Virus record (IMG/VR): IMGVR_UViG_2671180846_000036
Span: 1-16,577 of that record
Direction: 5' to 3' (one strand)
From: a virus
Taxonomy: Duplodnaviria > Heunggongvirae > Uroviricota > Caudoviricetes
DNA: 16,577 bases
A program made the translations under genes and the position numbers. The first letter of the stretch is position 1. Each line of letters opens with the position of its first letter. The notes beneath the pieces were generated by a model. The model was not told where the DNA came from. It ran no database searches and was given only the letters and a program-made list of their open reading frames with translations. Positions 1-16,079 of this stretch are shown in pieces.

Positions 1-1314
1 CTAACCCACTGATTTTAATAGGCCTCCTGTGTCACTTTGGTGACTATGGGACATCATTGGGACATAATCTGCCAGCTTCTGATTCAGCATTGCTATCTGT
101 TCTGCATTGCTGTCAGTCATCCATGCTCCGTATACATTGAACACCATCTGGGCACTTGCATGGCCCATCTGGCTGGCAATGAAGCTTGGATTTGCTCCGG
201 CAGATAATGACCAGCACGCATAAGTGTGTCGTGACTGGTATGCCTTTCGATGCCTGATGCCTGCACGTTTAATGGCTGTTTCCCATGAGTCGCCAATGGA
301 ATCTACCTTGTAGATAAAACCTACCTGTTTGCTTTTTCTAACCACCTGGGGGTTAAATACGAAAGTACATTCATGATTCACTGAACGTCCATATTCACGT
401 AGTTGAACCTTGATGTGGTGCTGCTTACCCAGTCTTGTCATTTCAGCCTGATTTTTCAGGACATTGATAGCGGGCTGGATAAGATGCACAACCCTGTTTG
501 TACTTGCTTCAGTTTTAGGTAGAGTGAACTCACCGAGTTTCGTATAATTGCGCCTGATAGTAATTGTTCCTGCTTTCAGATCGATATCTTCCCAGGCTAG
601 GGAGACCAGTTCACCATGACGCATTCCTGTGTACACAGCCAATGACCACAGGTTTTTTGTCTGCTGATGCCGGCAAGCATCTATCAGGCGAATAAATTCG
701 TCACGAGTTAGCGGATCTGGCTCTGCCCTGGCTCTTTTGAGAGGCTTAATTCCCTCGAAGGGATTTGCTTCTAAGTAACCGTGATCTGCAGCAAACTGAA
801 ACATTCCAGCGATTGTCGTCATATAATAATTTACAGTAACGACGCTCCGTCCTCTTGCTGGTGCTTTGTCTTTCGTTGAATTCTGATATCCGGTCAGCAA
901 ATCTTTCCTGATATACAGCAATTCCTCTTTGGTCACCGTTGACACCAGTCTGCTACCTCCAATTTTCGGAACCATCGTTCTTGCAACGGATTCATAGCGA
1001 TTGAATGCATTTGCAGAGATTTCCATGCGTTTCAGATCCAGCCACTTTTCTTCAAGCTCTTTCACCGTAATTTCTTTTTTATTTACCCCAAAAGCCTTGA
1101 GGTTAGGAGAGTCAGGGAACTGCGCAGCGTAATCAAAGTTTCCTGTACGAATGGCAAAACATACAGATGTCCGCAGCTCTCCGGCGATCTTCCTGTTCTT
1201 GGCAGTGTCAGGGACACCAAGGTTTTCCCTGACACGTTTACCTTTAAAATTAAACCAGATGCGTAATGTGCCACCGTGGTTTTCGACGCCTGTTGGATAT
1301 TTGACTTTATCCAT
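1..1314 (-). CDS. int: Tyrosine-type site-specific integrase (phage integrase family), 437 aa
   Basis: Full ORF; stop codon TAG is the reverse complement of cta at 1-3. The C-terminal catalytic region carries the RHTYA box (HxxR) and a downstream Tyr in the VYGAW context, typical of lambda-type integrases. Position at the prophage edge next to an excisionase-like gene. Confidence 0.9.
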   Translation of the reverse strand: MDKVKYPTGVENHGGTLRIWFNFKGKRVRENLGVPDTAKNRKIAGELRTSVCFAIRTGNFDYAAQFPDSPNLKAFGVNKKEITVKELEEKWLDLKRMEISANAFNRYESVARTMVPKIGGSRLVSTVTKEELLYIRKDLLTGYQNSTKDKAPARGRSVVTVNYYMTTIAGMFQFAADHGYLEANPFEGIKPLKRARAEPDPLTRDEFIRLIDACRHQQTKNLWSLAVYTGMRHGELVSLAWEDIDLKAGTITIRRNYTKLGEFTLPKTEASTNRVVHLIQPAINVLKNQAEMTRLGKQHHIKVQLREYGRSVNHECTFVFNPQVVRKSKQVGFIYKVDSIGDSWETAIKRAGIRHRKAYQSRHTYACWSLSAGANPSFIASQMGHASAQMVFNVYGAWMTDSNAEQIAMLNQKLADYVPMMSHSHQSDTGGLLKSVG

Positions 1315-1369
1315 CGATACCTCCAGACGCCCAAGAGCGATACGAGCTTACATATTTCATGGTATTAAA

Positions 1370-1606
1370 TCACCTGGGTTGTTTGTTTTTCATTGAAGCG
1401 ACCCAGGCATCGATTGCTTTTCTGTTATACATACATTCGCTGGAAGGTTTTGGATTACCGTCAGGCGATACGTGAATATACTCTCTTCCTACCATCCAGC
1501 ATTCTTTCCGGGCCCGGAGAATTGTGCCTGGTTTGAGCCCGGTAATTGCGATAAGAACGCTTTCACAAACCCATTCATTGGGAGCCAGTTGAATCACATT
1601 GCCCAT
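1370..1606 (-). CDS. Excisionase-like small DNA-binding protein, 78 aa
   Basis: Small basic protein immediately upstream of int on the same strand. The pattern NEW...LKPGTILRARKECWMVGREYIHV resembles the lambda Xis / putative-excisionase winged-helix signature (..EW......RRW.REC.I....GREY..). GAGGTAA RBS 8 nt upstream of the ATG. Confidence 0.6.
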   Translation of the reverse strand: MGNVIQLAPNEWVCESVLIAITGLKPGTILRARKECWMVGREYIHVSPDGNPKPSSECMYNRKAIDAWVASMKNKQPR

Positions 1607-1614
1607 GCATTACC

Positions 1615-1761
1615 TCACACAACACTCAGCCCACGGCAGTGGCACCACACATCAAACATTCGTTTTACAATTTCACGGCAGTAGAAACCGTCAACATCTC
1701 GCGTCAGGTCATAGCGATTGCCGTAACGCTGGCGTACCCATAGCTCAAACGCTTTATTCAT
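1615..1761 (-). CDS. Small hypothetical protein, 48 aa (MNKAFELWVRQRYGNRYDLTRDVDGFYCREIVKRMFDVWCHCRGLSVV); absent from the supplied ORF track
   Basis: Translated by hand on the minus strand. ATG at 1759-1761 lies 3 nt after the TAA stop (1765-1767) of the upstream gene, with an AAGGAAG RBS 7 nt upstream; its TGA stop is 8 nt before the xis ATG. It fills an otherwise unexplained gap in a tightly packed operon. Confidence 0.35.
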   Translation of the reverse strand: MNKAFELWVRQRYGNRYDLTRDVDGFYCREIVKRMFDVWCHCRGLSVV

Positions 1762-1764
1762 TTT

Positions 1765-2007
1765 TTACTTCCTTTGCATGGCTCGTAATTTCTTCAGATG
1801 AGTTTCCTGCTCTGTTTCTGCCAGAATTTGTAGGTATTCCTGATGATCGAGCCGTTCAAACGTTTCATTAAAATCGTTTATTTTTACCGACTGTGTTCGC
1901 CCATCCATTCTTCTGTACAACACGGTGTTATTTATGCAGCGAATAATTCTTACCGGGTAACCGGCACTGTCGGTATACAGTTGTCCCTGATTAATCAAAG
2001 CGAACAT
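1765..2007 (-). CDS. Hypothetical protein, 80 aa (start trimmed to the internal ATG beginning MFALINQ)
   Basis: The long ORF 1765..2148 overlaps the upstream gene; the internal ATG at 2005-2007 is preceded by AGGAGAA. No recognisable motif. Confidence 0.45.
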   Translation of the reverse strand: MFALINQGQLYTDSAGYPVRIIRCINNTVLYRRMDGRTQSVKINDFNETFERLDHQEYLQILAETEQETHLKKLRAMQRK

Positions 2008-2038
2008 TTTTTCTCCTGCTCTCTGAATAGTGAGAACT

Positions 2039-2398
2039 TCAGAGTCGTATGTTTGTAGCGGGTTCAATGCTGATGATTTCTGCTGAGATAAGCATCCCGG
2101 CAAGCCAGAGCTCTCCGGACAGGTTTTCATCCTTGCATTCCAGTCCACCGATATTAATGGTGGCTATGATATCGCGCTCATCCTCGACTTCTTCATAAGG
2201 CAGCGTTGCGTACAGGCTTTCAATAGCGCAACTGATAACATCCAGTCCGGTCAGATTGCCGCCGACAGTAACTTCGAATGTTTCGCGGTATTCCCATAAC
2301 CCGAAAGTTAATCGAACGGTTTGTTTTGCCATGCGTCCGCATGACGTCAGATTCGGGTCATAGTTCATTATTTGCGGTTGGGCATTATGGGTGTTCAT
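2039..2398 (-). CDS. Hypothetical protein, about 119 aa (start trimmed to MNTHNAQ)
   Basis: ORF 2039..2470 overlaps the 3' end of the SPFH gene; the internal ATG at 2396-2398 is preceded by AAGGGAAAAG. No recognisable motif. Confidence 0.45.
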   Translation of the reverse strand: MNTHNAQPQIMNYDPNLTSCGRMAKQTVRLTFGLWEYRETFEVTVGGNLTGLDVISCAIESLYATLPYEEVEDERDIIATINIGGLECKDENLSGELWLAGMLISAEIISIEPATNIRL

Positions 2399-2438
2399 CT
2401 GCTTTTCCCTTAGCCCGGCGGCCTGCCGGGCATATAAG

Positions 2439-3266
2439 TTATTTAACCTGGATAAATGGTGTATTAGCACCGCTGGTCATGTATTGCGGCAGTGTGCCGT
2501 TCCATTTATTGATGGCTTCCAGCTCCATAACGCCGGGGTTCTGGCGCAGAGCTTCACCGCGTAAACGAATAGCATCAGCTTCGGCCTGGGCTTTTGTGCG
2601 AATCGCATCAGCCTGTCCGGCAGCTTCTGCGCGCAACATATTGGCTTCCGCTTCGCGCTGTTTTACTTCCTGCTCGCGCTGCAGTGTTTTCTGGTTCGCC
2701 GTGACTTTGGCATTAATGCTGTCGATAACGGTTGGCGGGTACTCCGGCTTACCCACATATGAGAGGCTCATTACCTGAATGCCGATAGGTGTCATCTCTG
2801 CCTGAATGTCTTTAAGAGCTTCATCCAGCAGCTCAGACTTGCCGCCGTCGATAAATTTGTCAGTGGTCATTTTGCTGGCCAGTCGGTTGAGTGCGTCGGC
2901 GATCTTCTGGCGCAGGTCAGTGTCGGTAATGTCATCCACGCCTTTGCGGTAGGTCTGAAACACCGTGGTAACTTTGGATGGATCAACTTTGTAGGCCACA
3001 CCGATGTGATAGCCGATGGTTGTACCGTCACTCATCTGGAAACTGAACGGTTCATCGTAGGTCTTCATTTGTTTGAAGGTGGGGAAGATATAAACTTCAG
3101 TATTCCAGCCAGTCCAGTAGCGACCAACACCGACCACCTCACCGACGCCTTTGTCGTCGCCCAGTTTATTTACCTTGATGCCAACATTACCTGGTTCAAC
3201 GCGATCGCAACCGACAAGGCCAATAGTCGGCAGAACAATGGCTAAAGCAAAAATAATTTTTTTCAT
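2439..3266 (-). CDS. SPFH/band-7 (prohibitin/stomatin-like) domain lipoprotein, 275 aa
   Basis: N-terminal lipoprotein signal peptide MKKIIFALAIVLPTIGLVGC with lipobox LVGC. Central beta-rich region followed by a long Ala/Glu/Arg/Gln-rich coiled-coil (REQEVKQREAEANMLRAEAAGQADAIRTKAQAEADAIRLRGEAL), the typical SPFH architecture. Start overlaps the stop of the upstream membrane-protein gene (ATGA). Confidence 0.75.
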   Translation of the reverse strand: MKKIIFALAIVLPTIGLVGCDRVEPGNVGIKVNKLGDDKGVGEVVGVGRYWTGWNTEVYIFPTFKQMKTYDEPFSFQMSDGTTIGYHIGVAYKVDPSKVTTVFQTYRKGVDDITDTDLRQKIADALNRLASKMTTDKFIDGGKSELLDEALKDIQAEMTPIGIQVMSLSYVGKPEYPPTVIDSINAKVTANQKTLQREQEVKQREAEANMLRAEAAGQADAIRTKAQAEADAIRLRGEALRQNPGVMELEAINKWNGTLPQYMTSGANTPFIQVK

Positions 3267-3451
3267 CTTTTATCCTTAGTGAAAGAAAGACCCTTGTAAA
3301 TGGCATAAATGCAGGGCGGGGTCAGAAACGCCAGTGCAAAGCCAGAAATAACTGCTATCGTATCCTTCATGGATATAAGGAACGGAACGAGTAATCCGTA
3401 AATGCATGCGATAATTGCCAGTGATATGACTATTCTGAAATAAATATTCAT
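3263..3451 (-). CDS. Small integral membrane protein, 62 aa, two predicted TM helices
   Basis: Two hydrophobic stretches (IVISLAIIACIYGLLVPFLI and IAVISGFALAFLTPPCIYAIY) with a basic C-terminal tail. Translationally coupled to the SPFH gene (ATGA overlaps at both ends). Confidence 0.6.
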   Translation of the reverse strand: MNIYFRIVISLAIIACIYGLLVPFLISMKDTIAVISGFALAFLTPPCIYAIYKGLSFTKDKR

Positions 3452-3726
3452 GCTCCTCCTGATATCTTTCTGATTGCCTTTTTCAACTTTTTACTGTTAT
3501 TCACGCTACAGTAAATTTCGGCAATCTCACGTGATAACATTATTTCTCCACTGTTTTTATCTATAGCAACGAGACTGGAATTGTCTCGTATGAGTTTCTT
3601 TATCATTGGCATTGCCATAAACTCTTCTGGCGTATAGATGCGTGTATGGCGGCGAACGTGTTTTATTACAGGTGTTTTATGTTTTGACTCAACCTGAAAT
3701 ACATTAATTTTATTCTGATTTGACAT
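3448..3726 (-). CDS. Hypothetical basic protein, 92 aa
   Basis: Complete ORF, ATG at 3724-3726 two nucleotides after the stop of the upstream gene; Lys/Arg-rich. No recognisable motif. Confidence 0.5.
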   Translation of the reverse strand: MSNQNKINVFQVESKHKTPVIKHVRRHTRIYTPEEFMAMPMIKKLIRDNSSLVAIDKNSGEIMLSREIAEIYCSVNNSKKLKKAIRKISGGA

Positions 3727-3728
3727 AT

Positions 3729-4310
3729 TTAATGTGCCACTGGTGTTTCTGGCATACCATGAGTATTCAGATCGTGAATCATTTCATCCAGAAGGAGTTC
3801 AAGCCCTTCGCGCCCCATAGCAGAAACAATGAAACCATTATCAGGATCTGCGATGAGCATATTTTGATAGAGAAACAGAACTCGCCCCATGCCTTCAGCT
3901 TCGCCATATTTTTCAATAAATCCCCATTCGACATGGTTTTGCAGGGCAATGCGAAGTGGTCCTGGGTATATACTCATGCAACCATGCTTCCCCTTATAAA
4001 TAACTGCGCGATCTGTAGTTCCGTCATCGTTAGGGATATCAATGGTGCCGTTCTTGCCTTCTTCTTCATTTATAAACGTCGTCACATACAGCCATCGCCA
4101 TTGAGCAATCTTCATATCGACTGAAAATCGTCCCAGTAATCCGGCATCATCGGCTTCAGCAATACATTGCATAATTCTTAAACCGTGAGAATTTGGATAA
4201 TCGTATTCACCATCATTAAGCCGCTGTACGGCCTCAACATAATCAATGGTTGTATTGCCCATTTTTATGCCATGTGGCGTAACTTCTGGTCGGAACTCTG
4301 AATGATTCAT
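3729..4310 (-). CDS. Hypothetical protein, 194 aa (start trimmed to MNHSEFRPEV)
   Basis: ATG at 4308-4310 overlaps the TGA stop of the upstream 67-aa gene (ATGA) and is preceded by AAGGAG 7 nt upstream. Acidic protein with no recognisable motif. Confidence 0.55.
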   Translation of the reverse strand: MNHSEFRPEVTPHGIKMGNTTIDYVEAVQRLNDGEYDYPNSHGLRIMQCIAEADDAGLLGRFSVDMKIAQWRWLYVTTFINEEEGKNGTIDIPNDDGTTDRAVIYKGKHGCMSIYPGPLRIALQNHVEWGFIEKYGEAEGMGRVLFLYQNMLIADPDNGFIVSAMGREGLELLLDEMIHDLNTHGMPETPVAH

Positions 4311-4510
4311 AATGTTTGCTCCTTTGCTGGTGGAATAATCGTGTAACCCGCTCTTTTTGCCATCCACAGAAATGTATCCATGCAGCCAACGAATTCATTA
4401 TCCAACAGATGTTTTGAGTAAATTACTTCACCATTTTCAATGGTTAGCAACACTCTTACTTTTTTATGTGTTATGTTTTGTTGTTTTTCTTCCATTGACT
4501 TATCTCCCAT
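4307..4510 (-). CDS. Hypothetical small protein, 67 aa, first gene of a five-gene leftward operon
   Basis: Complete ORF with a roughly 180-nt AT-rich upstream region (4511-4691) that probably carries the promoter; stop overlaps the next start. Confidence 0.45.
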   Translation of the reverse strand: MGDKSMEEKQQNITHKKVRVLLTIENGEVIYSKHLLDNEFVGCMDTFLWMAKRAGYTIIPPAKEQTL

Positions 4511-4691
4511 ATGCTTTGCGCAAATACAGGTTAGCTATATGAAGATAAGAATCTCCATGTTGTGCAATGAGGCAGGCAGTTTTATACGATGCCTTATGTT
4601 TCAGGAAAATCATAACATAATCTCCTGCGAATAAAGGTTGCAATAATCCCCGGCGATAAAACCGTAATAAACATTCAGGGAATATTTATTG

Positions 4692-5057
4692 TTATTGCGC
4701 TAATTCTTTTTCGGCAGCAGCTTTTGCATATTCACATGCAAAATTTAGAATTTCGCTGCCAAGTGTTTTTGTTTCGTGATTACTTGACATATGTAATACC
4801 TGTGTTGCATGCAATAAATGATAAACATTTACCGCAAATGAGTCCGGCTCCAGACAAATGCCTTCATAATCATCTTGTTGTGAGGTTGTTTCTGTCATTG
4901 CTCCTGAAGTGCATGCGAGCCTGTTTTTGACAATTCTCTTTCCTCTAATCACTATATCGGCAACATCTATTGCCTTTACAACCTCCGGGAGAAGTTCCGG
5001 GTTTGTATAATCAAAGTTATCAACATGGAGAACAGTTATGTTTTCGAACTTTTTCAT
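4692..5057 (-). CDS. Hypothetical protein, 121 aa
   Basis: Complete ORF in an AT-rich segment; no recognisable motif. Confidence 0.5.
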   Translation of the reverse strand: MKKFENITVLHVDNFDYTNPELLPEVVKAIDVADIVIRGKRIVKNRLACTSGAMTETTSQQDDYEGICLEPDSFAVNVYHLLHATQVLHMSSNHETKTLGSEILNFACEYAKAAAEKELAQ

Positions 5058-5185
5058 GGCTTCCTCAGCTGACTTATATGTTCTGCTATATAGCGAGTCT
5101 CAGAAGTGTTTTCATATTGAGACTGTTTCCGCAATGATCGATAAAAATGTTCGCATGTACCTTGAGGGGCGAAGCGGTGATTATG

Positions 5186-5734
5186 TCACCATTGGTATTG
5201 GTTCTTCCTTAGAAGAGCTTCGCGAGATAAGGAGCAAACTTGTTGAGATGCGTCATGGTGTTGCTGCTCCTCACTTTTTGGTTGCTCCGGAGGAGTAACC
5301 TCGCCAGTTAACAGCCACATCGGATCGCAGCCAAGAATATTTGCCAGTGGGATAAGCATACTGATAGTTGGTTCATACTCTCCGCTCTCCCACTGGATGA
5401 TAATTTCTTCATCGAGATCGAGCAGCCTGGCGAGTTCGGCGGTTGTTAAGCCGCAGGCTTCGCGTTGGGGGCGAAGGTTAACCAGCCAGCTTTCAGGGAA
5501 GGATTGTTTTTGTTGTGCAGGAGAAGCAGCAGATAGAGCATATTCATGGATAAATTCCATTACCTCAATGCCCAGTTCCTTTGAGCGAGCACAATCCAGA
5601 AGATGGAATGTGCGTACAGCACTTAGCAAATTTGCAATATTTAATGCAAAGGAATCAAGTTCTAAGCCCTTAAGCGTAACACAGCCGCAGTTGATAAAAT
5701 TAGTTGTTTCTGGAGTTGCGTTTAGTGTCTTCAT
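5186..5734 (-). CDS. XRE/Cro-C1-type HTH domain protein, 182 aa
   Basis: Segment LTTAELARLLDLDEEIIIQWESGEYEPTISMLIPLANILGCDPMWLL matches the XRE-family HTH pattern (helix, turn, QWE.G...P....L..LA..L). The HTH sits in the C-terminal half, which is atypical. Confidence 0.55.
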   Translation of the reverse strand: MKTLNATPETTNFINCGCVTLKGLELDSFALNIANLLSAVRTFHLLDCARSKELGIEVMEFIHEYALSAASPAQQKQSFPESWLVNLRPQREACGLTTAELARLLDLDEEIIIQWESGEYEPTISMLIPLANILGCDPMWLLTGEVTPPEQPKSEEQQHHDASQQVCSLSREALLRKNQYQW

Positions 5735-5843
5735 ATATCCACCAACAATTTTAAATTGAATTAAATCAAGTTATAATTGATGGTGCGATATTATGCTTTG
5801 AGAAATAGGCTGTCAAGAAAAAATTGATATTGTGTGTTTTAGG

Positions 5844-5868
5844 CAGAAAAAAACGGGCAAAGCCCGTT
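5844..5868 (-). terminator. Rho-independent terminator downstream of the repressor gene
   Basis: Plus strand aaaaaaa-AACGGGC-aaa-GCCCGTT; on the minus-strand transcript this is a 7-bp GC-rich stem, 3-nt loop, then a U7 tract, about 12 nt after the cI-like stop. Confidence 0.55.
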
Positions 5869-5879
5869 AAAATCAAAGA

Positions 5880-6575
5880 CTAACCAAATCTGTTTATATT
5901 GAATGGTACTGATGAGATCACTTTAGACTGGATATAAAGCAGAGCTAACCCCTCTTTTTCGATGCTCCATGGTTGATAATTGGGGTTATCAGATAACACC
6001 ATGATTTTGCTTCCAATTTTCTGAAGTCTTTTTACGTAGCATTCTCCATCAAAACAAAATGCATAAATGCCATCGCCATCAAAATAAGTTACTGTCTTAT
6101 CAAGAAAAAGAAGGTCGCCAGGTGAGATTGTGGGAGCCATACTGTCTCCTCTGGCGTTACCTATTTCTATATTTTTGAATGCCCGATTTCCAACAAGGCG
6201 TCGGGCATATTCAGGGTCAAGTTCTATTGAGCGCACTACATCTATCAAGTCACCACGGACATGAGTTCCATCACCGCAACTAAACTCAACATCAAGGACA
6301 TTAAACACGACGCTATCTGTTCTTGTCTGGTGTTTCTCTTGCGAGGAAAAGGTTGGTGAGGAGTCTTCACCTAAGAACCAGGATTGTGGATAACCGCTAA
6401 TCTCTGATAAATGCGCGAGCTTATCACTCCGTGGAAATGTTTTTCCTGTTGTCCAATACTGCACTGATTGCGCACTCACACCTAACTTGCGGGCCAGTTG
6501 AGCCTGAGTCCATCCTTTTGCTTTCAGCATTGCGGCTATTCGATTTTCCGTGTTTTTGACGTTCTTCATAACCAA
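5880..6575 (-). CDS. cI: CI-like phage repressor (N-terminal HTH, C-terminal S24 LexA-like autopeptidase), 231 aa
   Basis: N-terminal HTH (WTQAQLARKLGVSAQSVQYWTTGKTFP). The C-terminal domain carries the S24 catalytic Ser in GDSMAPT and the Lys in YVKRL. Divergent from a Cro-like gene across a 127-bp repeat-containing intergenic region. Confidence 0.9.
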   Translation of the reverse strand: MVMKNVKNTENRIAAMLKAKGWTQAQLARKLGVSAQSVQYWTTGKTFPRSDKLAHLSEISGYPQSWFLGEDSSPTFSSQEKHQTRTDSVVFNVLDVEFSCGDGTHVRGDLIDVVRSIELDPEYARRLVGNRAFKNIEIGNARGDSMAPTISPGDLLFLDKTVTYFDGDGIYAFCFDGECYVKRLQKIGSKIMVLSDNPNYQPWSIEKEGLALLYIQSKVISSVPFNINRFG

Positions 6576-6702
6576 ATCCTGTGGGTTTCTTTACAAGGAT
6601 AAATCTTTACTTGATTTTAGTGTATTCGATCCTTTTGTAACTTGCATGTTAATTTAAACTTGATGTATTCTTGATTCATAAAGTTAATATTGGTGCTTTG
6701 TT
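6576..6702. promoter_or_regulatory. Immunity-switch intergenic region (putative divergent promoters and operators)
   Basis: AT-rich 127-bp region between divergent cI-like and cro-like genes. Contains the imperfect inverted pair TACAAGGAT / ATCCTTTTGTA and several copies of ACTTGAT / CTTGATT. Exact operator half-sites and -10/-35 boxes were not resolved. Confidence 0.5.
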
Positions 6703-7002
6703 ATGAAAGGAAATGATTACGACAAACTTCGTGCATTAATTGCGCAAAATGCCATAGCGCGAAATCTTGGTGTGACGCCGCAAGCGGTGAATCAGTGGTT
6801 TTCAAAAAACACAATTCCTGCTCGTTTCGTTTTACGCGTATGTGAAGTAGTTGCATGGAAGGTCACGCCACATGGCTTAAGGCCAGATCTTTATCCTCAC
6901 CCTGAAGATGGAATTCCTGATTCGTTACGCAAAATTTCAAATCCAAGCTTAGCGCGCACGGAAGATGGGCAGAGTGATTTATCAGAAATGTCCACGCGAT
7001 GA
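6703..7002 (+). CDS. Cro-like HTH regulator, 99 aa
   Basis: Small protein with HTH (AIARNLGVTPQAVNQWFSKNTIP) transcribed divergently from the cI-like gene, in the canonical cro position. Short leader and weak SD. Confidence 0.7.
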   Translation: MKGNDYDKLRALIAQNAIARNLGVTPQAVNQWFSKNTIPARFVLRVCEVVAWKVTPHGLRPDLYPHPEDGIPDSLRKISNPSLARTEDGQSDLSEMSTR

Positions 7003-7078
7003 ACGGTTACTGAACGAAAAAAGAAAAGCCGGGCCGCATTCCGTCAGCCCGACTTATTCTGATTAGTAAGGGGATTTC

Positions 7079-7924
7079 ATGATGATCAATAAACAAAAAT
7101 TAGTCAACCCTGAAAACCTGCCAGTTATTGCTGGTGTAGAAATTTCAACTGATATGGTTGGGCGCTTTAATCTGAATGCATTGCATCGAGCCAGCGGTCT
7201 TGGCCCCAATAAAGCTCCGACGCAGTGGTTGCGTACTCAGTCAGCTAAACAACTTATTGAAGAGCTGGAAAAAGAAACTATGCAGAATTGCATAGTTTCA
7301 CTGGAAGGGCGGAATGGCGGTACTTTTGCGCACGAACTGCTTGCTGTTGAATATGCAGGATGGATTTCTCCTGCGTTCCGGTTGCAGGTGAACCAGACTT
7401 TTATTGACTATCGTACTGGCAAACTTACAGCGGGCAATAATCAGTTACCCAATTTTGACGATCCGATCGCTGCTGCTGAAGCGTGGATTGAGGCCAGAAA
7501 AGCCGAACGCCTTGCTCTCGGGTATGTAGAGCGTCAGGCTCGCTACATCAACAAACTTGAAAGCCATCTCGCCGATGGCATCACTCCTGTGCAGTTCTGC
7601 AAACAACTCAACGGTGTAAACACTCGTCAGATTAATGCGTTCCTTGAAGAGCGTAACTGGCTGTATGACGACCGTCCGGAGGCGATGTATCCGCGCTGGC
7701 GTGTAAAAGCGTATGCACGTGACCAATACCTGACTGAGCGTTCTGGGCAGGTTGAGCAGGAAAACGGGGAAATGCGCGAGATTTTCAAACCACTCCTGAA
7801 GAAAAAAGGTGCCGCCTGGTTATATCGCCATTATCTGAACGGCGAACTACCGATGAAGAAAACATGGGATGGGCTATTTACCCATAACACTGAGCTCGCG
7901 AATCTTTTACAGGAGAACAAATGA
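7079..7924 (+). CDS. KilA-N domain protein with C-terminal antirepressor-like region, 281 aa
   Basis: N-terminal segment FNLNALHRASG...GGTFAHELLAVEYAGWISPAFRLQV matches the KilA-N signature as I recall it (GTWxHP.LA...A.WlSP.F). AAGGGGA RBS upstream; stop overlaps the next gene start. Confidence 0.6.
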   Translation: MMINKQKLVNPENLPVIAGVEISTDMVGRFNLNALHRASGLGPNKAPTQWLRTQSAKQLIEELEKETMQNCIVSLEGRNGGTFAHELLAVEYAGWISPAFRLQVNQTFIDYRTGKLTAGNNQLPNFDDPIAAAEAWIEARKAERLALGYVERQARYINKLESHLADGITPVQFCKQLNGVNTRQINAFLEERNWLYDDRPEAMYPRWRVKAYARDQYLTERSGQVEQENGEMREIFKPLLKKKGAAWLYRHYLNGELPMKKTWDGLFTHNTELANLLQENK

Positions 7925-8133
7925 TGCAAACCAAGACGTGTGTAACTGGTGATGTCGATCTGAAACCTTGCCCGTTCTGCGGAAATCCGGAAGTACAACT
8001 CATTGAGGTGAAATATTTTCTGGATGGCGATGATGGTTATTACGTCGCATGTACTTGCTGTAACGCAAACCAGATTCCTGATTCGAAAGAACGTGCCGTT
8101 CATGACTGGAACCAGCGCGAAAACGTGGATTAA
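7921..8133 (+). CDS. Small zinc-ribbon protein, Lar-like (putative restriction alleviation), 70 aa
   Basis: Two Cys pairs (LKPCPFCG ... CTCC). The LKPCPFCG motif and size fit the Lar-family restriction-alleviation proteins of Rac-type prophages as I recall them. Translationally coupled (ATGATG) to the upstream gene. Confidence 0.5.
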   Translation: MMQTKTCVTGDVDLKPCPFCGNPEVQLIEVKYFLDGDDGYYVACTCCNANQIPDSKERAVHDWNQRENVD

Positions 8134-8447
8134 CGGCGAGTAGGTACAAAATGATCCGCAACCAAAATATTGATTCTGCAATTTCGGGACGTTACACTGT
8201 TCCGGCACCTTATAAAGCGGGTGCCGGGATTGGAACCCCGGAATTGCTCGAGGCGATATACGACGCGCCAGCGTCTTTTTTATCGTCCATGCTCGCGCAC
8301 GCCAGAATTATGGTGGGCTGGGCAGGGGAGCCGAAAGGCTCGCCGGTTTCCTTGAGCGCCGGTAGTTCCAACCCTGTCCAGTCCGCCACCAGTGAGATTG
8401 GAACCTCCGGTGGTGGAAGTTTTTCACTGCTCAAGGAGGCTGCCATC

Positions 8448-8810
8448 ATGGCTACAGTCCCAACTTCCCCATACCTGAAAATCGAAGTCGTCAACGGCAA
8501 AGCTGTTATTTTCTCCCTGCATGTTGCCTGCCACTTTAAGCGCATGCACCAGAACATCGTCGACAAAATCGAGTATCTGAACTGCTCACGCGAATTTTTT
8601 ACCCGCAATTTCATACCGGGTACTTATCACATCTATGGTGACTCCCTGCGTGGTTATTACATCACCCTTGATGGGCTGATGATGCTTCAGCTTGGGTTAA
8701 GTCTGCGCACAATGCGGTACTACGAGAGCTGCATTGAAGTATTCCATGAGGCTGAAACCAGTCTGAATCACACTGCTTTCCGCCGTAATCAATGGGAGGT
8801 GCGCCCATGA
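8448..8810 (+). CDS. Rha-family phage regulatory protein, about 120 aa (start at internal ATG; in-frame ORF extends back to 8151)
   Basis: VVNGKAVIFSLHVACHFKRMHQNIVDKIEYLNCSREFF...YITLDGLMMLQLGL resembles the Rha N-terminal domain pattern (V.NG.avt.Sl.vAe.FgK.H.nVlrdi..l.cs.eF...mTrdGf.lL.mg). The ATG at 8448 has a strong AAGGAGG RBS 8 nt upstream; the upstream in-frame extension is GC-rich, low-complexity and lacks a good RBS. Confidence 0.6.
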   Translation: MATVPTSPYLKIEVVNGKAVIFSLHVACHFKRMHQNIVDKIEYLNCSREFFTRNFIPGTYHIYGDSLRGYYITLDGLMMLQLGLSLRTMRYYESCIEVFHEAETSLNHTAFRRNQWEVRP

Positions 8811-9031
8811 TTCGTCGCGTTGTGAATTCTCTGTATCACCGATACAACCGTTGCCCCCGTGTGGGGCAGTGGTTTGCCACCAGCAACGGTCATGTTCTGC
8901 GGGTTTGCCTGGTCAGTACCGAAAGCCAGAAAGTCGTGTGTGAATTACTGGGGCGTAACTACACCATTAGCTACCCACTGGCGGTGTTTCAGTCCGGAAA
9001 AATGTTTAAACGCCTGGGAGGTGCCGTGTGA
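8807..9031 (+). CDS. Hypothetical small protein, 74 aa (start at MIRRV)
   Basis: ATG at 8807 overlaps the Rha stop (ATGA) and is preceded by GGGAGGTG. No recognisable motif. Confidence 0.45.
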   Translation: MIRRVVNSLYHRYNRCPRVGQWFATSNGHVLRVCLVSTESQKVVCELLGRNYTISYPLAVFQSGKMFKRLGGAV

Positions 9032-9984
9032 GTAGCAAAATTCTCGGTAACGTCTGGGATGCATGTGCCGCGTATGGAGTCAAAGGTGCAAAGCTGATGA
9101 TCATGGCGCGCCTGGCTGATTATTCGAATGATGACGGGGTGTGTTACCCCGGTGTTGAAACAATATGCCGACAGCTTGGGTTGGGAGAAAGCACAGTAAG
9201 AACGGCAATTTCAGAGCTGGAGGCTGATGGCTGGCTGACGCGTCATTCACGCCGCAAAGGTAATCGTAATACGTCCAATCTTTATCATCTGAATGCTGAT
9301 CGGCTTGAACAGCTTGCCAGAACGGAGCGGGATAAGGTCGCTGAACTGAAAAAACAGCGCAGACTTTCAGCATTACGTGACCCGTCAGAATCTGAACCGT
9401 CAGAATCTGAACCTTCAAAATCTGAACCGTCAGAATCTGAACCTTCAAAATCTGACCAGTCAGAATCTGAATGTTCAGGTGTGTTTGACCCTTCAGATTC
9501 TGGCAAAAAAACGGTTTTGACCCTTCAGAATCTGGACCCAGATCCACAAGGTTTAAAACATGATCCACAAGTAAATTCAAAACATGATCCGCAAGATATT
9601 GGCGCATCCGCTGACGCGTCTGCACCAGCGCGTTCTGCCCGACAGGAATATTCACCGGAATTTGAACAGGCCTGGCAGGAATATCCCAAACGTGCTGGTG
9701 GCAATTCCAAGTCAGCAGCCTTCAAAGCCTGGAAAGCCCGTCTCAGGGAGGGAATAAAACCGGAGACCATGCTTGATGGTGTGAGACGTTATGCCGCCTG
9801 GGTACGTGCTACAGGAAATACCGGCACACAGTTCGTGAAGCAGGCTGCGACGTTCTTTGGACCCGATCGTCATTTCGAGGAAGCCTGGCAACAGCCAGCC
9901 GCTCCCGGAGGTGGGCGAACTACCGGCCTCCCGATCTCGGGATTCAGTGAGCAGGACTACGGTTCAACGAACTTCAACTGGTGA
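9028..9984 (+). CDS. Replication initiator / replisome organiser (O-like; N-terminal wHTH, repeat-encoded Ser/Glu/Pro linker, C-terminal DnaT-like region), 318 aa
   Basis: N-terminal HTH-like region (CYPGVETICRQLGLGESTVRTAISELEADGWL); an internal low-complexity linker PSESEPSESEPSKSEPSESEPSK encoded by DNA tandem repeats; position immediately upstream of the DnaC-like and DnaB-like genes. The arrangement parallels lambda O, where ori iterons lie inside the gene. Confidence 0.7.
   Translation: MSSKILGNVWDACAAYGVKGAKLMIMARLADYSNDDGVCYPGVETICRQLGLGESTVRTAISELEADGWLTRHSRRKGNRNTSNLYHLNADRLEQLARTERDKVAELKKQRRLSALRDPSESEPSESEPSKSEPSESEPSKSDQSESECSGVFDPSDSGKKTVLTLQNLDPDPQGLKHDPQVNSKHDPQDIGASADASAPARSARQEYSPEFEQAWQEYPKRAGGNSKSAAFKAWKARLREGIKPETMLDGVRRYAAWVRATGNTGTQFVKQAATFFGPDRHFEEAWQQPAAPGGGRTTGLPISGFSEQDYGSTNFNW
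9382..9471. repeat. Six tandem 15-bp direct repeats (consensus CCGTCAGAATCTGAA), putative origin iterons
   Basis: Read directly: CCGTCAGAATCTGAA x2, CCTTCAAAATCTGAA, CCGTCAGAATCTGAA, CCTTCAAAATCTGAC, CAGTCAGAATCTGAA. The core CAGAATCTG is near-palindromic. Two further copies (GACCCTTCAGATTCTGG and GACCCTTCAGAATCTGG) lie at 9487-9535, followed by CATGATCCACAAG repeats and A/T-rich spacers at 9541-9600. Confidence 0.7.
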
Positions 9985-10003
9985 TTTTTCGAGGTGATGA
10001 ACA

Positions 10004-10894
10004 ATGTTTGAACAGTTAAAAAAATACTACGCACAACACGACAAAGCGCAATTGCTCAACCGCAGGGCGGAACTGGAGGAGGAGATGCAGTTTGCCCGTG
10101 CCGGGAAGCGTCCGTGGCGCTGTGAACACTGGCTGACAAGCGAGGAAACTGCTGAGTGTGAGAAACACGGGAAATACACACGTCTGGTGTTGAAAGGGCC
10201 AGATGTTCGTGGGGAAGCCATCAAACGGGTGTCTGGTTGCCCGACCTGCATTGCGAATGAACTGGATCAGGTACAGGAGGCGTTACGCATCCTGAAAGTT
10301 CATGAATTACTCGACAGGGCTGGTATTGCCCGCCGCTTCCAGAACTGCGAGTTTGAGAATTATCAGGCGGTGAATGCTGACGCACAGAGAAATCTTGAGG
10401 CTTGTCGGCGCTATGCCGGTTCATGGGAGAAGTGTCTTGCTGCGGGTACCAGCATGATCATGATTGGCAATTGCGGTACCGGGAAAAATCACCTGGCTGT
10501 ATCAATGGCAAAAAATATTATTCGCCACCACCTGGCGACTGTCGAAATTACGGATGTTATGCGACTGACCCGCGCTGTGAAAAATACCTGGCGTCACAAT
10601 TCTGAACGCACTGAAGATGAAGTTATTGACCATTTTGTATCGCTGGACCTGCTCATCATCGATGAGGTTGGTGTGCAGTTCGGTACGCCAACAGAGATAA
10701 CCATCCTGCAGGAAATCATCAATGCGCGTTACGAAAGCGTGTTACCGACAATTTTGATCAGCAATCTGACGTTTGAACAGCTTAAGGAATCCATTGGTGA
10801 ACGGATTGTGGATCGCGTTACTGATGGTGGGCGTAACTGTCTGGTGTTTGGTTGGGAAAGCTACCGTGCACATATCAGAGGTGTGGCAGCATGA
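10004..10894 (+). CDS. DnaC-like helicase loader (IstB-like AAA+ ATPase), 296 aa
   Basis: Walker A GNCGTGKNHLA and Walker B LLIIDEVG. N-terminal Cys cluster (RCEHW ... GCPTC) suggests a zinc-binding module. GAGGTGA RBS upstream. Confidence 0.85.
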   Translation: MFEQLKKYYAQHDKAQLLNRRAELEEEMQFARAGKRPWRCEHWLTSEETAECEKHGKYTRLVLKGPDVRGEAIKRVSGCPTCIANELDQVQEALRILKVHELLDRAGIARRFQNCEFENYQAVNADAQRNLEACRRYAGSWEKCLAAGTSMIMIGNCGTGKNHLAVSMAKNIIRHHLATVEITDVMRLTRAVKNTWRHNSERTEDEVIDHFVSLDLLIIDEVGVQFGTPTEITILQEIINARYESVLPTILISNLTFEQLKESIGERIVDRVTDGGRNCLVFGWESYRAHIRGVAA

Positions 10895-12282
10895 CAACTC
10901 CAGTCTGGCGTAACGATGACCTGGAAGGCGCTGTCATTGGCGCGTTCTTTCTGCGCGGGGCAGATCCTGAAGTGATGGATATTCTGGCCACACTACCTGC
11001 GGACGTTTTTTCTGTACGACCGTATCGGGATATCTACACAGGCATCTGCAGACAGGCCCGTGTTTCAGGTGTGATTGACCCTGTGCTGCTGTGTAATGAG
11101 ATGCCGGAACTTGCCCCGGTGATTACTGATACCGGGCGTAAAACCTGGGTGAAGTCTTCACTGGAGCACTATGTTGCAGCGTTGCGTCGCAATGCCGCAC
11201 TGCGTGATGCAGAAAAGACGCTGAATGAGGCGTTGCAGAAATTACGTGATGCGCATACCTGTGAAGCAGCTGAAGATGCCCTGAAGGATGCGCAGAACAT
11301 GATGGCCTCATTGTCGACGGAAAAGGGCGTTATTCAGCCGGTACATATTGATGATGTGCTTCCGGAAGTGGTTGAGCGTGTTGAATGCCGGAATCAGGGG
11401 CTGGAGAAATCCAGGACGTTGATGACCGGTATTGATGAACTGGACGCAAAAACGGGCGGCATGGAGCCTGGCGACCTGGTATTTATTGCTGCACGTCCTT
11501 CGATGGGCAAAACCGAACTGGCGCTGGATATCATCGACAAGGTGACTGAGCAGGGGCATGGTGTTCTTCTGTTCACAATGGAAATGGCGAACATCCAGAT
11601 TGGTGAGCGCATGGTATCTGCGGCTGGAGGAATGCCGGTATCACGTCTGAAATCTGTCACTCACTTTGAAGACGAAGACTGGGCACGTTTCTCACAAGGG
11701 GTGGGGCGGATGACCGGGCGCAATATCTGGATGGTGGACCAGGCGAACCTGACCATTGACGAGATATGCGCAACAACGAAACACCACCTGATTAAACATC
11801 CGGAAACGGCGCTGGTGGTGGTTGATTATCTCGGACTGATAAAAACCCGAACCACGGGGCGTCATGACCTTGCCGTGGGTGAAATCTCAAAGGGGCTTAA
11901 AGGTCTGGCAAAATCCGGTGGTTTTCCGTTGATTGCGCTGAGTCAGCTCTCCCGCGGTGTGGAGTCCAGACCCAATAAACGTCCGATGAACTCAGACCTG
12001 AAAAATTCCGGAGAAATAGAGGCGGATGCAGACATCATTCTGATGCTTTACAGGGATGAAGTGTACAACCCGGATACGCAGGCCAGGGGCATCGCAGAAA
12101 TCAATATCACGAAACAGCGTAACGGTTCTCTGGGGACGGTTTACCGGCGTTTTTATAACGGACATTTTCTGCCTGTGGATCAGGAAAGCGCACAGATTCT
12201 TTCCACCCCAATGCAGCAGCCCCAGCCGCGCAGATACAGCAATAAGCGAACCGACAGCAGTAAGATGGAGCGTTTCTTTTGA
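10891..12282 (+). CDS. DnaB-like replicative DNA helicase, about 463 aa (start at MTTPVW)
   Basis: RecA-like C-terminal domain with Walker A ARPSMGKTELAL, Walker B-like VVVDYLGLI and the SQLSR motif typical of DnaB-family helicases. ATG at 10891 overlaps the DnaC-like stop (ATGA). Confidence 0.85.
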   Translation: MTTPVWRNDDLEGAVIGAFFLRGADPEVMDILATLPADVFSVRPYRDIYTGICRQARVSGVIDPVLLCNEMPELAPVITDTGRKTWVKSSLEHYVAALRRNAALRDAEKTLNEALQKLRDAHTCEAAEDALKDAQNMMASLSTEKGVIQPVHIDDVLPEVVERVECRNQGLEKSRTLMTGIDELDAKTGGMEPGDLVFIAARPSMGKTELALDIIDKVTEQGHGVLLFTMEMANIQIGERMVSAAGGMPVSRLKSVTHFEDEDWARFSQGVGRMTGRNIWMVDQANLTIDEICATTKHHLIKHPETALVVVDYLGLIKTRTTGRHDLAVGEISKGLKGLAKSGGFPLIALSQLSRGVESRPNKRPMNSDLKNSGEIEADADIILMLYRDEVYNPDTQARGIAEINITKQRNGSLGTVYRRFYNGHFLPVDQESAQILSTPMQQPQPRRYSNKRTDSSKMERFF

Positions 12283-12293
12283 ACAACCAGACC

Positions 12294-12536
12294 ATGACTT
12301 TTACGCCTGAACAATTACGTAAACAGGCACAGGAAATGTTACGACAGGCGGAACAACTGGAAAAGACAGGCGTAACAAAAGATGCCATTCGTAAGGATAT
12401 GGTGCCAGCGCTCAGGGAACTGATGCAGGCGAAACACCGCGCACAAAAAGCAGTGGATGAGCTGGTGGATTGTGTGGCAGAGCTGGAAACCAAAGTTGGA
12501 AAGTTCGAAAAACTGGTGCAGGAGGTACTGCGCTGA
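12294..12536 (+). CDS. Small coiled-coil hypothetical protein, about 80 aa
   Basis: Charged helical sequence (EQLRKQAQEMLRQAEQLEK...). The track ORF begins at a TTG at 12279; the first ATG is at 12294. Stop overlaps the Q start (TGATG). Confidence 0.45.
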   Translation: MTFTPEQLRKQAQEMLRQAEQLEKTGVTKDAIRKDMVPALRELMQAKHRAQKAVDELVDCVAELETKVGKFEKLVQEVLR

Positions 12537-12904
12537 TGCGTGATATGTACGAAGTTTTAGATCGTTGGGGGGCCTGGGCTGCAGCAGATAACAGTGGTGT
12601 GGACTGGCAGCCGATAGCAGCAGGCTTCAAGGGGCTTTTACCACACGGTAAAAAGTCACGTCTCCAGTGTGATGATGACGAAGGTATCATGATAGACGGT
12701 TGTGTGGCTCGGTTGCGAAAGTATAAACCCGAAGAGTATGAGTTGATCATTGCTCACTTTGTTATTGGTATCTCATTACGCGCTATTGCTAAAAAACGGA
12801 AATGTTCAGATGGAACAATACGGAAAGAGATGCAAACAGCAATGGGGTTTATTGATGGCTGCTTGTCATTTTTCATTTACTACAATGACTTAAGTTCTAT
12901 GTAA
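12536..12904 (+). CDS. Q: Late-gene antitermination protein Q (phage 82/21/DLP12 QuuD-type), 122 aa
   Basis: [60 protein letters not shown]... closely parallels the N-terminus of DLP12/phage-21-type Q as I recall it ([34 protein letters not shown]...[20 protein letters not shown]). Position after the replication genes fits. Confidence 0.85.
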   Translation: [122 protein letters not shown]

Positions 12905-12910
12905 AATCGT

Positions 12911-12945
12911 TCTACTTTCCCAACTTTTATGTGTATATAATACCA
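12911..12945 (+). promoter_or_regulatory. Putative promoter region downstream of Q (candidate PR'-like late promoter or cargo-gene promoter)
   Basis: AT-rich stretch with a consensus TATAAT hexamer at 12936-12941, about 27 nt upstream of the GTG start of the methyltransferase; no convincing -35. Proximity to the Q stop (12904) matches where lambdoid PR'/qut sites lie. Confidence 0.3.
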
Positions 12946-12967
12946 GGATAAAGTAACGGAGAATCTT

Positions 12968-14008: not shown

Positions 14009-14666
14009 AGGTAATATAATTTTCTGTTGAGTTGATTAATAAACGCAAATATAGATCAATTCTTTCTGACCTCGATTTGACTTCTTCTAAAGGGTCTATT
14101 TGACCTTTTTTAGAAAAGCTGGTACTTCCATGTGCCAGCTCATTTCTGATATCTTTAAGTAAATCTAAGTCAACACCATTTCTACACTCTGGTGAGTTTG
14201 CAACAGTTATTCCGTAAGCTTGTGTTATTTTGTGCAATACAGACTTGCAAACATTACCATTGAATTCTTTACGTATGTTTAATGAGGCTGAAATGATCCT
14301 TTTAGATATATCGGAACCAATTTTTTGATAAAGAGATTTTCCCGATTCATTATCTGAAATGATACGGTGCAAGATATTTACTTGGAATTTCTCCCTGAGT
14401 GATGCGTAATTTACTTCATTATCTTGCAAATGGTCATAAATTGACTCAATGCATCCTCTGGCAGTGTTTTCAACCTGATTGTACAGCATCATGTGCACGG
14501 ATGATTTTAAAATGTTAACCCTAAGGGTATTTGATTCTATTTCATCTTTATGCGTTTGCTGATCTAACTGCTGAGTCTGAGCCTCTAAAGATGACGCAAG
14601 AGAAAGCAATTCCATAATATCTCTTGCTCTTTCTTCGTATTCATCTCTTAAATCAATCAAACTCAT
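13977..14666 (-). CDS. HEPN-like protein (Rx4H motif; resembles the MAE_28990/MAE_18760 HEPN family), 229 aa
   Basis: Predicted all-helical protein with the motif DIRNELAHG (R-x4-H) in the C-terminal third, the hallmark of HEPN RNase domains. Second gene of a two-gene operon (start 2 nt after the DUF262 gene stop). Its 3' end overlaps the convergent C5-MTase gene by 32 bp. Confidence 0.55.
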   Translation of the reverse strand: MSLIDLRDEYEERARDIMELLSLASSLEAQTQQLDQQTHKDEIESNTLRVNILKSSVHMMLYNQVENTARGCIESIYDHLQDNEVNYASLREKFQVNILHRIISDNESGKSLYQKIGSDISKRIISASLNIRKEFNGNVCKSVLHKITQAYGITVANSPECRNGVDLDLLKDIRNELAHGSTSFSKKGQIDPLEEVKSRSERIDLYLRLLINSTENYITSNGYLSPQHV

Positions 14667-14668
14667 AG

Positions 14669-15826: not shown

Positions 15827-15936
15827 ATCACTGTTCCTTTAATTGGAGTTGGAAATAGATTGTAAGAAAACTATAACGCGTACGCAAAAAATATTATATC
15901 GTGTTAAGAGTGGTTACTACGCCACACAGCTTAAAC

Positions 15937-15957: not shown

Positions 15958-16079
15958 TGTCCGAAAAACGGCGCAGTACGTTAAACGTGCTGGTGGTTGC
16001 GAATACCGGTCTTTCAGCTTGCTGGCTTTTCAGACAAGAGTTATTGGTGTGTCACGTTAACCAGAAAAGGGAAAAAGAC

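Follow-up and report, generated by a model that had tools for sequence, protein, structure and literature searches.

Proteins with an SPFH domain, such as HflK/HflC, prohibitin, stomatin and flotillin, form membrane cages whose clients and purposes in bacteria are largely open. Described arrangements include the HflK/HflC heteropair and the operons that join an SPFH gene closely, and in the same orientation, to a gene for a small membrane protein of the NfeD type (QmcA-YbbJ, YqiK-YqiJ and the archaeal stomatin-STOPP). The 2009 classification of prokaryotic SPFH proteins contains no lipoprotein subfamily with a hairpin partner, and in it subfamilies 3, 4 and 6-12 are listed without an NfeD partner. 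The SPFH gene considered here lies on the minus strand of a 16,577-nucleotide stretch of DNA from a virus of the Caudoviricetes (IMG/VR record IMGVR_UViG_2671180846_000036, positions 1 to 16,577; the whole stretch is referred to as the window). It is the last of five genes at 2439-4510 that the original prediction, made from the letters of the sequence, had taken together as a candidate membrane-associated exclusion or defence module. The functional unit is not five genes but two, encoding a 62-residue hairpin protein of the inner membrane and an SPFH lipoprotein of 275 residues. As a whole, the interpretation that this pair forms a periplasm-facing SPFH scaffold with a non-NfeD partner, and serves a general membrane-organising or protective role in infection, is given a probability of roughly 0.55.

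A two-gene unit within a five-gene array

The window corresponds to the left arm of a lambdoid prophage of the phiP27-like kind, inserted at yecE. Within it, the block 2300-4700 is 97% identical to phage phiP27 across 88% of the length, and 99.9% identical over the whole length to a yecE-integrated prophage of Escherichia coli EC12. On the minus strand of this block, genes for proteins of 67 (p67, 4307-4510), 193 (p193, 3729-4310) and 92 amino acids (p92, 3448-3726) precede those of the hairpin protein (3263-3451) and the lipoprotein (2439-3266). All five are present in the list of open reading frames (ORFs); the ATGA overlaps at the junctions 4310-4307, 3451-3448 and 3266-3263 can be read directly in the sequence, as can the 2-nt gap (TAA-at-ATG) between p193 and p92. 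The array is thus as originally described, apart from small details: the protein put at 194 residues has 193 from the ATG, a stop codon having been counted; the ORF of 67 residues probably begins at a later ATG (see below); and, of the block supposed to be AT-rich, the four upstream genes are so (GC 0.36-0.43) and the SPFH gene is not (GC 0.50), the window mean being 0.45. The location between the int/xis genes and the immunity region with its cI-like repressor and Cro-like gene was correctly given, and the last two genes do encode a membrane protein with two predicted hydrophobic helices and a lipoprotein of SPFH type (lipobox LVGC and PF01145). All five ORFs are real genes under purifying selection and none is a chance ORF, since the ratios of nonsynonymous to synonymous substitution rates (dN/dS) against diverged homologues are low (0.07-0.08 for the SPFH gene, 0.12-0.54 for the hairpin gene, 0.23 for p92, 0.16 for p193 and 0.60 for p67) and four of the five proteins match a PHROG family.

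The five-gene module itself fails when co-occurrence is looked for in homologous loci. Among the 83 loci in which the SPFH protein is 97-100% identical to that of the window (the close loci), only three hold all five genes. The gene p92 is present in three of the 83, and its DNA occurs in 14 of the 5426 complete E. coli genomes scanned and in one phage record, while p193 is absent from about 27 close loci. The hairpin gene was found wherever upstream DNA exists, and the hairpin and lipoprotein genes are always together in these loci. Part of the block is carried by 591 of the 5426 E. coli genomes, 133 of which cover at least 80% of it; among the matches listed, EC12 is the sole record with full coverage, and E. 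coli records with 87-88% coverage align as two pieces. Phage phiP27, checked directly, lacks p92 and has an unrelated 176-bp spacer in its place. The reciprocal arrangement is found in phage ASU11 and E. coli 2013C-4991, where p67-p193-p92 are joined straight to the DUF5406 gene and the membrane pair is absent; alignment of the junction shows that the indel comprises exactly the two membrane genes and a GC-rich 3' hairpin. The pair also occurs without the three upstream genes in P88, P1-like phages, N4 and others. As the five genes fail to co-occur in homologous loci, the five-gene module is refuted, and p67, p193 and p92 are unrelated, separable passengers of the same operon, tied to the membrane pair by position only.

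The overlapping junctions do not alter this conclusion. In the rightward operon of the EC12 prophage at least six junctions of unrelated genes overlap by 4 nt, including KilA-N/Lar, Ash and the next gene, loader/DnaB and RusA/Q. Overlaps of 4 nt are therefore a sign of a phage operon and not of a functional complex, which is a caution for the search for defence systems: a module is not defined by the close overlap of genes in the early operon of a phage.

The membrane pair, on the other hand, is inherited together across phages of very different kinds, and its two genes are often coupled in translation. SPFH gene DNA 86-92% identical to that of the window is present in the P2-like phage P88 and in P1-like phages and phage-plasmids (239 plasmid places match), and in P88 and the P1-like phages a small ORF with two transmembrane (TM) helices overlaps the SPFH start. 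By tblastn, SPFH relatives were found in 737 phage records, mostly of virulent phages, among them Kayvirus (MbpS), Enterococcus Schiekvirus, N4 and N4-like, rV5-like, FelixO1-like, LUZ24-like and phiCbK-like phages, and also in crAss-like phages, Lak megaphages and haloarchaeal viruses. The pair as such recurs in N4, N4-like MY01, rV5-like, Pseudomonas, Burkholderia and Rhizobium phages; eight of ten fetched loci of proteobacterial phages have a small neighbour with two TM helices and the common turn motif described below. The partner lies two genes upstream of the SPFH gene in SalP219, a recognisable partner homologue is absent from the DL54 and phiEa104 loci, and Ccr10 has a different, three-helix membrane neighbour at this place. 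The partners of N4, Rhizobium LG08 and Pseudomonas D14B belong to phrog_1130, and Staphylococcus MbpS to phrog_200. A direct phmmer search with the 62-residue partner against 1.8 billion representatives returned 38 small proteins at E<=1e-3, the query being too short for mapping of the family.

In bacteria, the pairing was followed in 80 loci, one per species, which were fetched with a nine-sequence SPFH alignment and whose 5315 ORFs were scanned with a hidden Markov model (HMM) built from nine members of the partner family. There were 68 matches, one per locus and all on the SPFH strand: 64 end between -3 and +79 nt from the SPFH match, in two loci an IS1-like insertion intervenes, and two matches lie inside the SPFH ORF. 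A divergent partner was recognised by eye in two Sutterella loci, and fusions in three more loci. An adjacent partner gene in 70 loci and at least five fusions together account for all but seven of the 80 species loci; the partner-less seven are from Bacteroidota, Kapaibacterium, one Leptospira metagenome-assembled genome (MAG) and one unclassified MAG. The IS1-like insertion (about 770 bp, with an InsA-like ORF) splits the pair in Shigella flexneri SFBU1023 (locus L098, 2234-3000) and E. coli ECMA0423 (locus L099), and lengthens the two-TM ORF by six codons, a natural uncoupling of the pair.

The fusions are single ORFs (L141, 2809-3960; L176, 2692-3867; L165, 2743-3852; L170, 2686-3825; L175, 2635-3825) from unrelated lineages, namely Iamiaceae, gammaproteobacterial, Acidiferrales, deltaproteobacterial and unclassified MAGs. 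Their order is hairpin, basic linker, a third hydrophobic helix that ends at the former lipobox Cys, and SPFH domain. This order therefore fixes the relative topology, with the ends of the hairpin cytoplasmic and the SPFH domain outside, and at least five independent fusions argue for a physical interaction of partner and SPFH protein. No third conserved gene stands beside the pair across the 80 species outside one clade. On chromosomes the pair is found next to sdhA in Leptospira and between LysR/MFS genes and flhA in Xenorhabdus; in about 22 species of Dyella/Rhodanobacteraceae it is divergent from genes for a BlaI-like repressor and a BlaR1-like M56 sensor-protease, a neighbourhood which hints that cellular homologues are under envelope-stress regulation. 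In Cupriavidus and Pseudomonas the contexts are prophage-like. The SPFH genes are common and already annotated as such, but in the searched literature no statement was found that links phrog_200 and phrog_1130, across phages and bacteria, as obligate and at times fused partners; their obligate association, their fusions and their spread over phages of different lifestyles appear to be undescribed so far.

Predicted architecture of the lipoprotein and its partner

The assignment of the lipoprotein (2439-3266, minus strand) as SPFH-like, proposed from its sequence, was upheld both by a Pfam domain search and by Foldseek on an AlphaFold model. PF01145 (Band_7) is matched with 109.2 bits against a cutoff of 23.6 (E=3e-31), with an envelope over residues 22-208 (2643-3203, minus strand) that delimits the alpha/beta domain; the protein also matches phrog_200 (E=2.7e-114) and is 100% identical to the L05 protein of phiP27. 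The phiP27 reference and the Stx2-converting phage records among the matches listed carry the legacy label 'putative serine protease' for this gene, and leave the partner gene unannotated (3304-3492 in phiP27). The labels 'serine protease' and 'lipoprotein' are misleading and replaceable, and the small partner ORF should be called.

At the N terminus, attachment to the membrane is predicted to be by a lipid anchor and not by a TM helix. A signal peptide and the lipobox L-V-G-C occupy 3207-3266 on the minus strand, with the codon of Cys20 at 3209-3207 and Asp21 next, at position +2. The lipobox Cys stands ahead of the first SPFH strand in at least 65 of the 80 genomic homologues. It is followed by Asp-Arg in the nine closest scored E. 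coli-type enterobacterial homologues, two further enterobacterial loci lying outside the scoring of this pattern, and by Glu-Arg in Xenorhabdus and Morganella. Asp at +2 is the signal for retention in the inner membrane, by avoidance of the Lol pathway, in E. coli. By this rule, and because of the inner-membrane partner and the fusions, the lipoprotein would be retained in the inner membrane. These features bear on the idea that it is instead a surface or vesicle lipoprotein of lysogenic conversion, acting in the interaction of host and bacterium (virulence) and not in phage biology. Such a role has a precedent in a prophage HflK/C-like protein of Pasteurella multocida, which is expressed in the lysogen, borne on vesicles, engages TLR1/2 signalling and adds to virulence (PMC9872710), and the cassette is frequent in Shiga toxin (Stx)-converting phages. 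However, the Pasteurella protein (Pmorf0222, OAZ06802.1) is only a putative relative of this subfamily, the Asp at +2 and the inner-membrane partner speak against a surface or outer-membrane location, and the family is widespread in virulent phages and environmental bacteria. Lysogenic conversion is accordingly regarded as highly improbable.

The AlphaFold model, a monomer built on 29 sequences with a mean predicted local distance difference test score (pLDDT) of 77, places strands at residues 19-94 and 163-175 and helices at 96-161 (pLDDT 80-94), followed by a single long helix rich in Ala, Glu, Gln and Arg at residues 178-242 (2541-2735, minus strand). The C-terminal tail 245-275 (…INKWNGTLPQYMTSG…PFIQVK) has low model confidence and is conserved across the family, with K254, W255, G257 and P260 as conserved residues in the family alignment. 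The long helix, of roughly 65 residues, and the tail are the counterparts of wall helix and cap region in SPFH proteins that form cages, and with the alpha/beta domain they give the lipoprotein the complete architecture of such a protein. Foldseek against the PDB gave HflK/HflC (7vhq), erlin1/2 and prohibitin as top matches (E 3e-13 to 1e-12), then stomatin, flotillin, major vault protein and QmcA; of the 68 PDB matches at E<=1e-3, the best 50 are all of SPFH type or major vault protein. By sequence, the closest solved relative is HflK (E=4e-4, aligned over residues 114-240). Eight nt past the SPFH stop codon lies the GC-rich hairpin GCCCGGC-aggcc-GCCGGGC (2413-2431, minus strand), which has no U-run and was not called as an intrinsic terminator in the terminator scan; it marks the 3' edge of the cassette and may stabilise the 3' end of the RNA.

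Among the closest described systems is HflK/HflC (PDB 7vhp, 7vhq, 7wi3, 9cz2). Fold and order of domains agree from end to end (Foldseek E 3e-13), HflK/HflC give the best PDB sequence match, the SPFH domain faces the periplasm in HflK/HflC and would do so in the window protein, and the long wall helix and conserved C-terminal tail of the modelled protein are compatible with a cage. Identity is, however, only about 17%, and the window protein is encoded by one gene, has a lipid anchor and is accompanied by a dedicated 62-residue hairpin partner, whereas HflK and HflC form a K/C heteropair with N-terminal TM helices. Because the equivalog cutoffs are missed (25.9 and 23.1 bits against 134.4 and 159.4 for TIGR01932 and TIGR01933), and because of the single gene and the lipid anchor, the protein was rejected as an HflK or HflC. 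It could nevertheless mimic them, by engaging the periplasmic domain of FtsH or displacing HflK/C, so that the substrates of FtsH (CII-like and CIII-like regulators, Xis, LpxC and SecY) are turned over at a different rate and the choice between lysis and lysogeny, or the physiology of the host, is shifted. The solved structures closest to the lipoprotein include HflK and HflC, which also rank among its best PDB sequence matches, the lipoprotein and HflK/C would both face the periplasm, and the leftward operon itself encodes a CII-like regulator (phrog_4836); for a Burkholderia phage, HflC has been suggested to promote lysogeny (PMC10269572). Against such mimicry stand the bit scores far under the equivalog cutoffs, the single SPFH gene in place of a K/C pair, and the common occurrence of the family in haloarchaeal viruses and in virulent phages, for which there is no choice of lysogeny to make. 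Strict conservation of a dedicated partner further suggests that the enclosed client is the hairpin and not FtsH, and the mimic is considered distinctly improbable.

The prohibitin and erlin complexes (PDB 8rrh, 9o9z, 9vvg, 9o9u) share the top of the structural matches with HflK/C (E about 1e-12, template-modelling score 0.5-0.6) and also place their SPFH domains on the non-cytosolic side of the membrane, but are eukaryotic, TM-anchored heteromers without a hairpin partner. The SPFH-NfeD operons (QmcA-YbbJ, PDB 8z5g) resemble the pair in their tight linkage with a small membrane-protein gene, in TM helices of the partner that plausibly lie inside or under the SPFH ring, and in occasional gene fusions. 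They differ in that QmcA is cytoplasmic and TM-anchored, whereas the window SPFH protein is predicted to be periplasmic and lipid-anchored, and in that the partner gene of the window lies upstream. The pair was rejected as an SPFH-NfeD pair because its partner has no OB-fold domain: the 62-residue protein gives no PF01957 match (E<=0.1) and, once its two TM helices are accounted for, has too few residues left for an OB fold. As to phage annotations (phrog_200 'lipoprotein'; phrog_1130 'membrane protein', moron and host takeover; phiP27 L05; Kayvirus MbpS), the two proteins of the window are clear members of the PHROGs, which are annotation bins without an assigned function.

The partner (3263-3451, minus strand), whose stop codon overlaps the SPFH start in the ATGA at 3266-3263, has two predicted hydrophobic segments and matches phrog_1130 (E=3.7e-24); Pfam (E<=0.1), NCBIfam and PADLOC gave no match for it. 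Both of its ends are predicted to be cytoplasmic (N-in/C-in), with the conserved turn periplasmic. This turn reads …G-L-L-V-P-F-L-I-S-M-K-D-T… and the protein ends in the basic tail KGLSFTKDKR; the family consensus of the turn is G-x-x-P-x-L-I-S-A-x-[SD]-T-x-A-V-x-x-G, and the conservation profile reaches its maximum at this turn between the helices (P, L, I, S, followed by [SD]-T). The sequences of the TM helices drift freely, also between loci that share 93% identity in the mature SPFH protein. The periplasmic turn is the only region of the partner able to reach a periplasmic SPFH domain.

The size and topology of the partner (two TM helices, N-in/C-in, basic C-terminal tail) also fit a class II holin or pinholin, which could be caged or regulated by the SPFH lipoprotein in a module for lysis timing. 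In Kayvirus, mbpS and mbpV lie between the endolysin gene lysK and tgl, and MbpV has been noted to resemble holins, while MbpS might aid the secretion of Tgl (PMC7150955). Yet the pair is found far from lysis genes, in early regions, here and in P88, N4 and the P1-like phages, without any adjacent lysis gene, its chromosomal copies are in non-phage contexts, and MbpV, the neighbour in Kayvirus, has one TM helix and belongs to another PHROG family. A lysis-timing function is for these reasons held to be very unlikely. In Staphylococcus phage fRuSau02 (locus L090, 1154-2253), MbpV (phrog_3667), with a single TM helix and a highly charged tail, precedes MbpS in a lysis context unlike that of the Gram-negative phages.

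Expression context and possible roles

In a promoter scan, the sole strong sigma-70-like site upstream on the minus strand, and the best candidate for the promoter of the entire leftward array, is TTGACA-17-TAATAT at 5788-5816, which is designated pL-like because it lies just downstream of a terminator-like hairpin after the cI-like gene. Operator-like CTTGA(T) motifs are common to this region and to the promoter region on the pR/Cro side, which suggests that the pL-like promoter would be under repressor control. A convincing promoter or terminator flanking the pair was found neither in the window nor in the 176-bp spacer of phiP27. The P88 copy of the pair is part of the early operon and precedes the replication gene; in the P1-like phages the pair stands just upstream of the DnaB-like helicase gene (ban). 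Because a pL-like promoter lies upstream and no strong internal promoter is present, the pair would be expressed upon infection or induction rather than in the lysogen.

This context has to be weighed against superinfection exclusion or defence, the role originally proposed for all five genes, here considered for the pair: the two proteins would alter the inner membrane and block the DNA of competing phages, or cause abortive infection. The pair does lie in the accessory region of a temperate phage, where superinfection exclusion (sie) genes are common, the partner is placed by PHROGs in the category 'moron, auxiliary metabolic gene and host takeover', and the pair is horizontally mobile among unrelated phage types. 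In N4 it adjoins a gene annotated as 'superinfection exclusion' (phrog_1510). Virulent phages encode exclusion proteins too, Imm and Sp of T4 being examples. However, none of the five proteins matches a PADLOC v2 model at E<=0.1, neither protein of the pair resembles known Sie families such as T4 Imm/Sp, P22 SieA or the Cor/Llp lipoproteins, and phrog_200 and phrog_1130 are not annotated as exclusion. Strictly virulent phages carry the pair as well, the chromosomal copies lie in housekeeping contexts and not in defence islands, the pair in phages is part of early lytic operons (lambdoid, P2-like) or stands upstream of a DnaB-like helicase gene (P1-like) without a moron-style promoter and terminator of its own, and the window has a recognisable defence cassette elsewhere. 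Nothing was found in the analysis that supports anti-phage defence by the pair, and exclusion is considered unlikely.

A general membrane role is favoured because the pair is present in virulent phages, in temperate phages and at ordinary chromosomal loci, and a defence role expressed in the lysogen is less likely. In the proposed scheme, the lipoprotein would be acylated at Cys20, held on the periplasmic face of the inner membrane through its Asp at +2, and oligomerise into a ring or cage as its nearest structural relatives HflK/C, prohibitin and erlin do, and QmcA likewise. The hairpin partner, at about 1:1 with the lipoprotein, would provide the membrane-spanning element that a lipid-anchored SPFH protein is missing and dock onto it through the periplasmic turn, and the assembly may enclose a section of the inner membrane. 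As cargo of an early leftward pL-type operon, the cassette would be made once infection or induction has taken place, and could serve to keep the energised membrane intact or to control the turnover of membrane proteins.

Several points weigh against this scheme. Oligomerisation, inner-membrane location and partner binding are argued from analogy, and with Arg at +3, retention through the Asp at +2 may be less effective. The promoter scan is crude and may have missed a promoter from which the lysogen expresses the pair. The literature on phage members only speculates (PMC13239085, PMC7150955, PMC10269572), no functional study of phage SPFH lipoproteins having been found in the literature searched, and the vesicles which carry the Pasteurella protein, a putative relative, are of the outer membrane (PMC9872710). 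Finally, the exclusion gene adjoining the pair in N4 and the position of the Kayvirus SPFH gene, with its different single-TM neighbour MbpV, in the lysis-gene region hint at more specific roles.

A bolder proposition, regarded as tentative and rather doubtful, is that the pair represents an undescribed two-component SPFH system, a periplasmic, lipid-anchored cage with a separate, obligate non-NfeD membrane partner, shared by bacteria and a very broad array of phages and deployed early by the latter to remodel the inner membrane. If so, its purpose might be to bar the entry of competing phage DNA, or to shield the membrane until programmed lysis. With one SPFH gene and one 62-residue partner, the cassette may be a minimal, portable version of an SPFH system; if the two proteins form a defined complex, they would offer a tractable system for how SPFH cages act on membranes and why viruses want one.

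Passenger and neighbouring genes

The three passengers were described beforehand as proteins without a recognisable motif, which agrees with sub-threshold results in the Pfam, NCBIfam and PDB sequence searches, where only noise was obtained (DUF1980_C with 16 bits against a cutoff of 25.9; PDB E>=0.013); none of the three has a predicted TM segment. The product of p67 (4307-4510) belongs to the phiP27 L07 family (phrog_340, E=2.6e-24), a common small lambdoid early gene that occurs both with the membrane pair, in close loci, and without it, in ASU11 and 2013C-4991. Its true start is probably the second ATG at 4495, giving 62 residues, because a GGAG lies 9 nt upstream and RefSeq annotates the 62-residue form in EC12. 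The soluble protein encoded by p193 (3729-4310) is of the phiP27 L06 family (phrog_1515, E=1.4e-91), which comprises only 59 clusters, all from Enterobacteriaceae; its predicted fold is confident (pLDDT 89.6), and no structural relative was found for the model in the PDB or BFVD. It is a backbone or accessory gene of the phiP27-like group, outside the cassette. Also outside the cassette is p92 (3448-3726), a rare, separable accessory gene whose product has no family match in Pfam, PADLOC, PHROG or NCBIfam.

Downstream of the pair, and likewise on the minus strand, are the integrase gene (int, 1-1314; ORF and family matches), the DUF1233 excisionase gene (xis, 1370-1606), a DUF4222 gene (1765-2148) and the DUF5406 gene (2039-2398). 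Upstream of the array on the same strand lie an ORF of 121 residues (4692-5057), a gene for a helix-turn-helix (HTH)/CII-like protein of 182 residues (5186-5734) and the cI-like repressor gene (5880-6575), followed on the plus strand by the Cro-like gene (6703-7002).

Farther to the right, an AT-rich two-gene cassette at 13977-15826 (minus strand), together with 12968-14008 (plus strand), resembles the actual defence system of known type in the window. It encodes a GmrSD_N/DUF262 protein of 385 residues, which matches the PADLOC models NsnA (E=7e-46) and PD-T4-2_A (E=3e-27), and a HEPN protein of 229 residues, which matches HEPN_MAE_28990 (E=4e-16); a gene for a C5 cytosine methylase adjoins both. 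The EC12 prophage, which has the same left arm, continues downstream with a rightward operon containing DUF968, RusA and Q, in which no GmrSD/HEPN cassette is annotated. In the left arm itself, the 4692-5057 gene is annotated in RefSeq only in a 68-residue version. The C-terminal half of its 121-residue product and the N-terminal part of the 182-residue HTH/CII-like protein match the same PHROGs (phrog_5451, phrog_4587 and phrog_4836), which, at the level of sequence, indicates a duplicated domain in these two neighbouring early-left genes.

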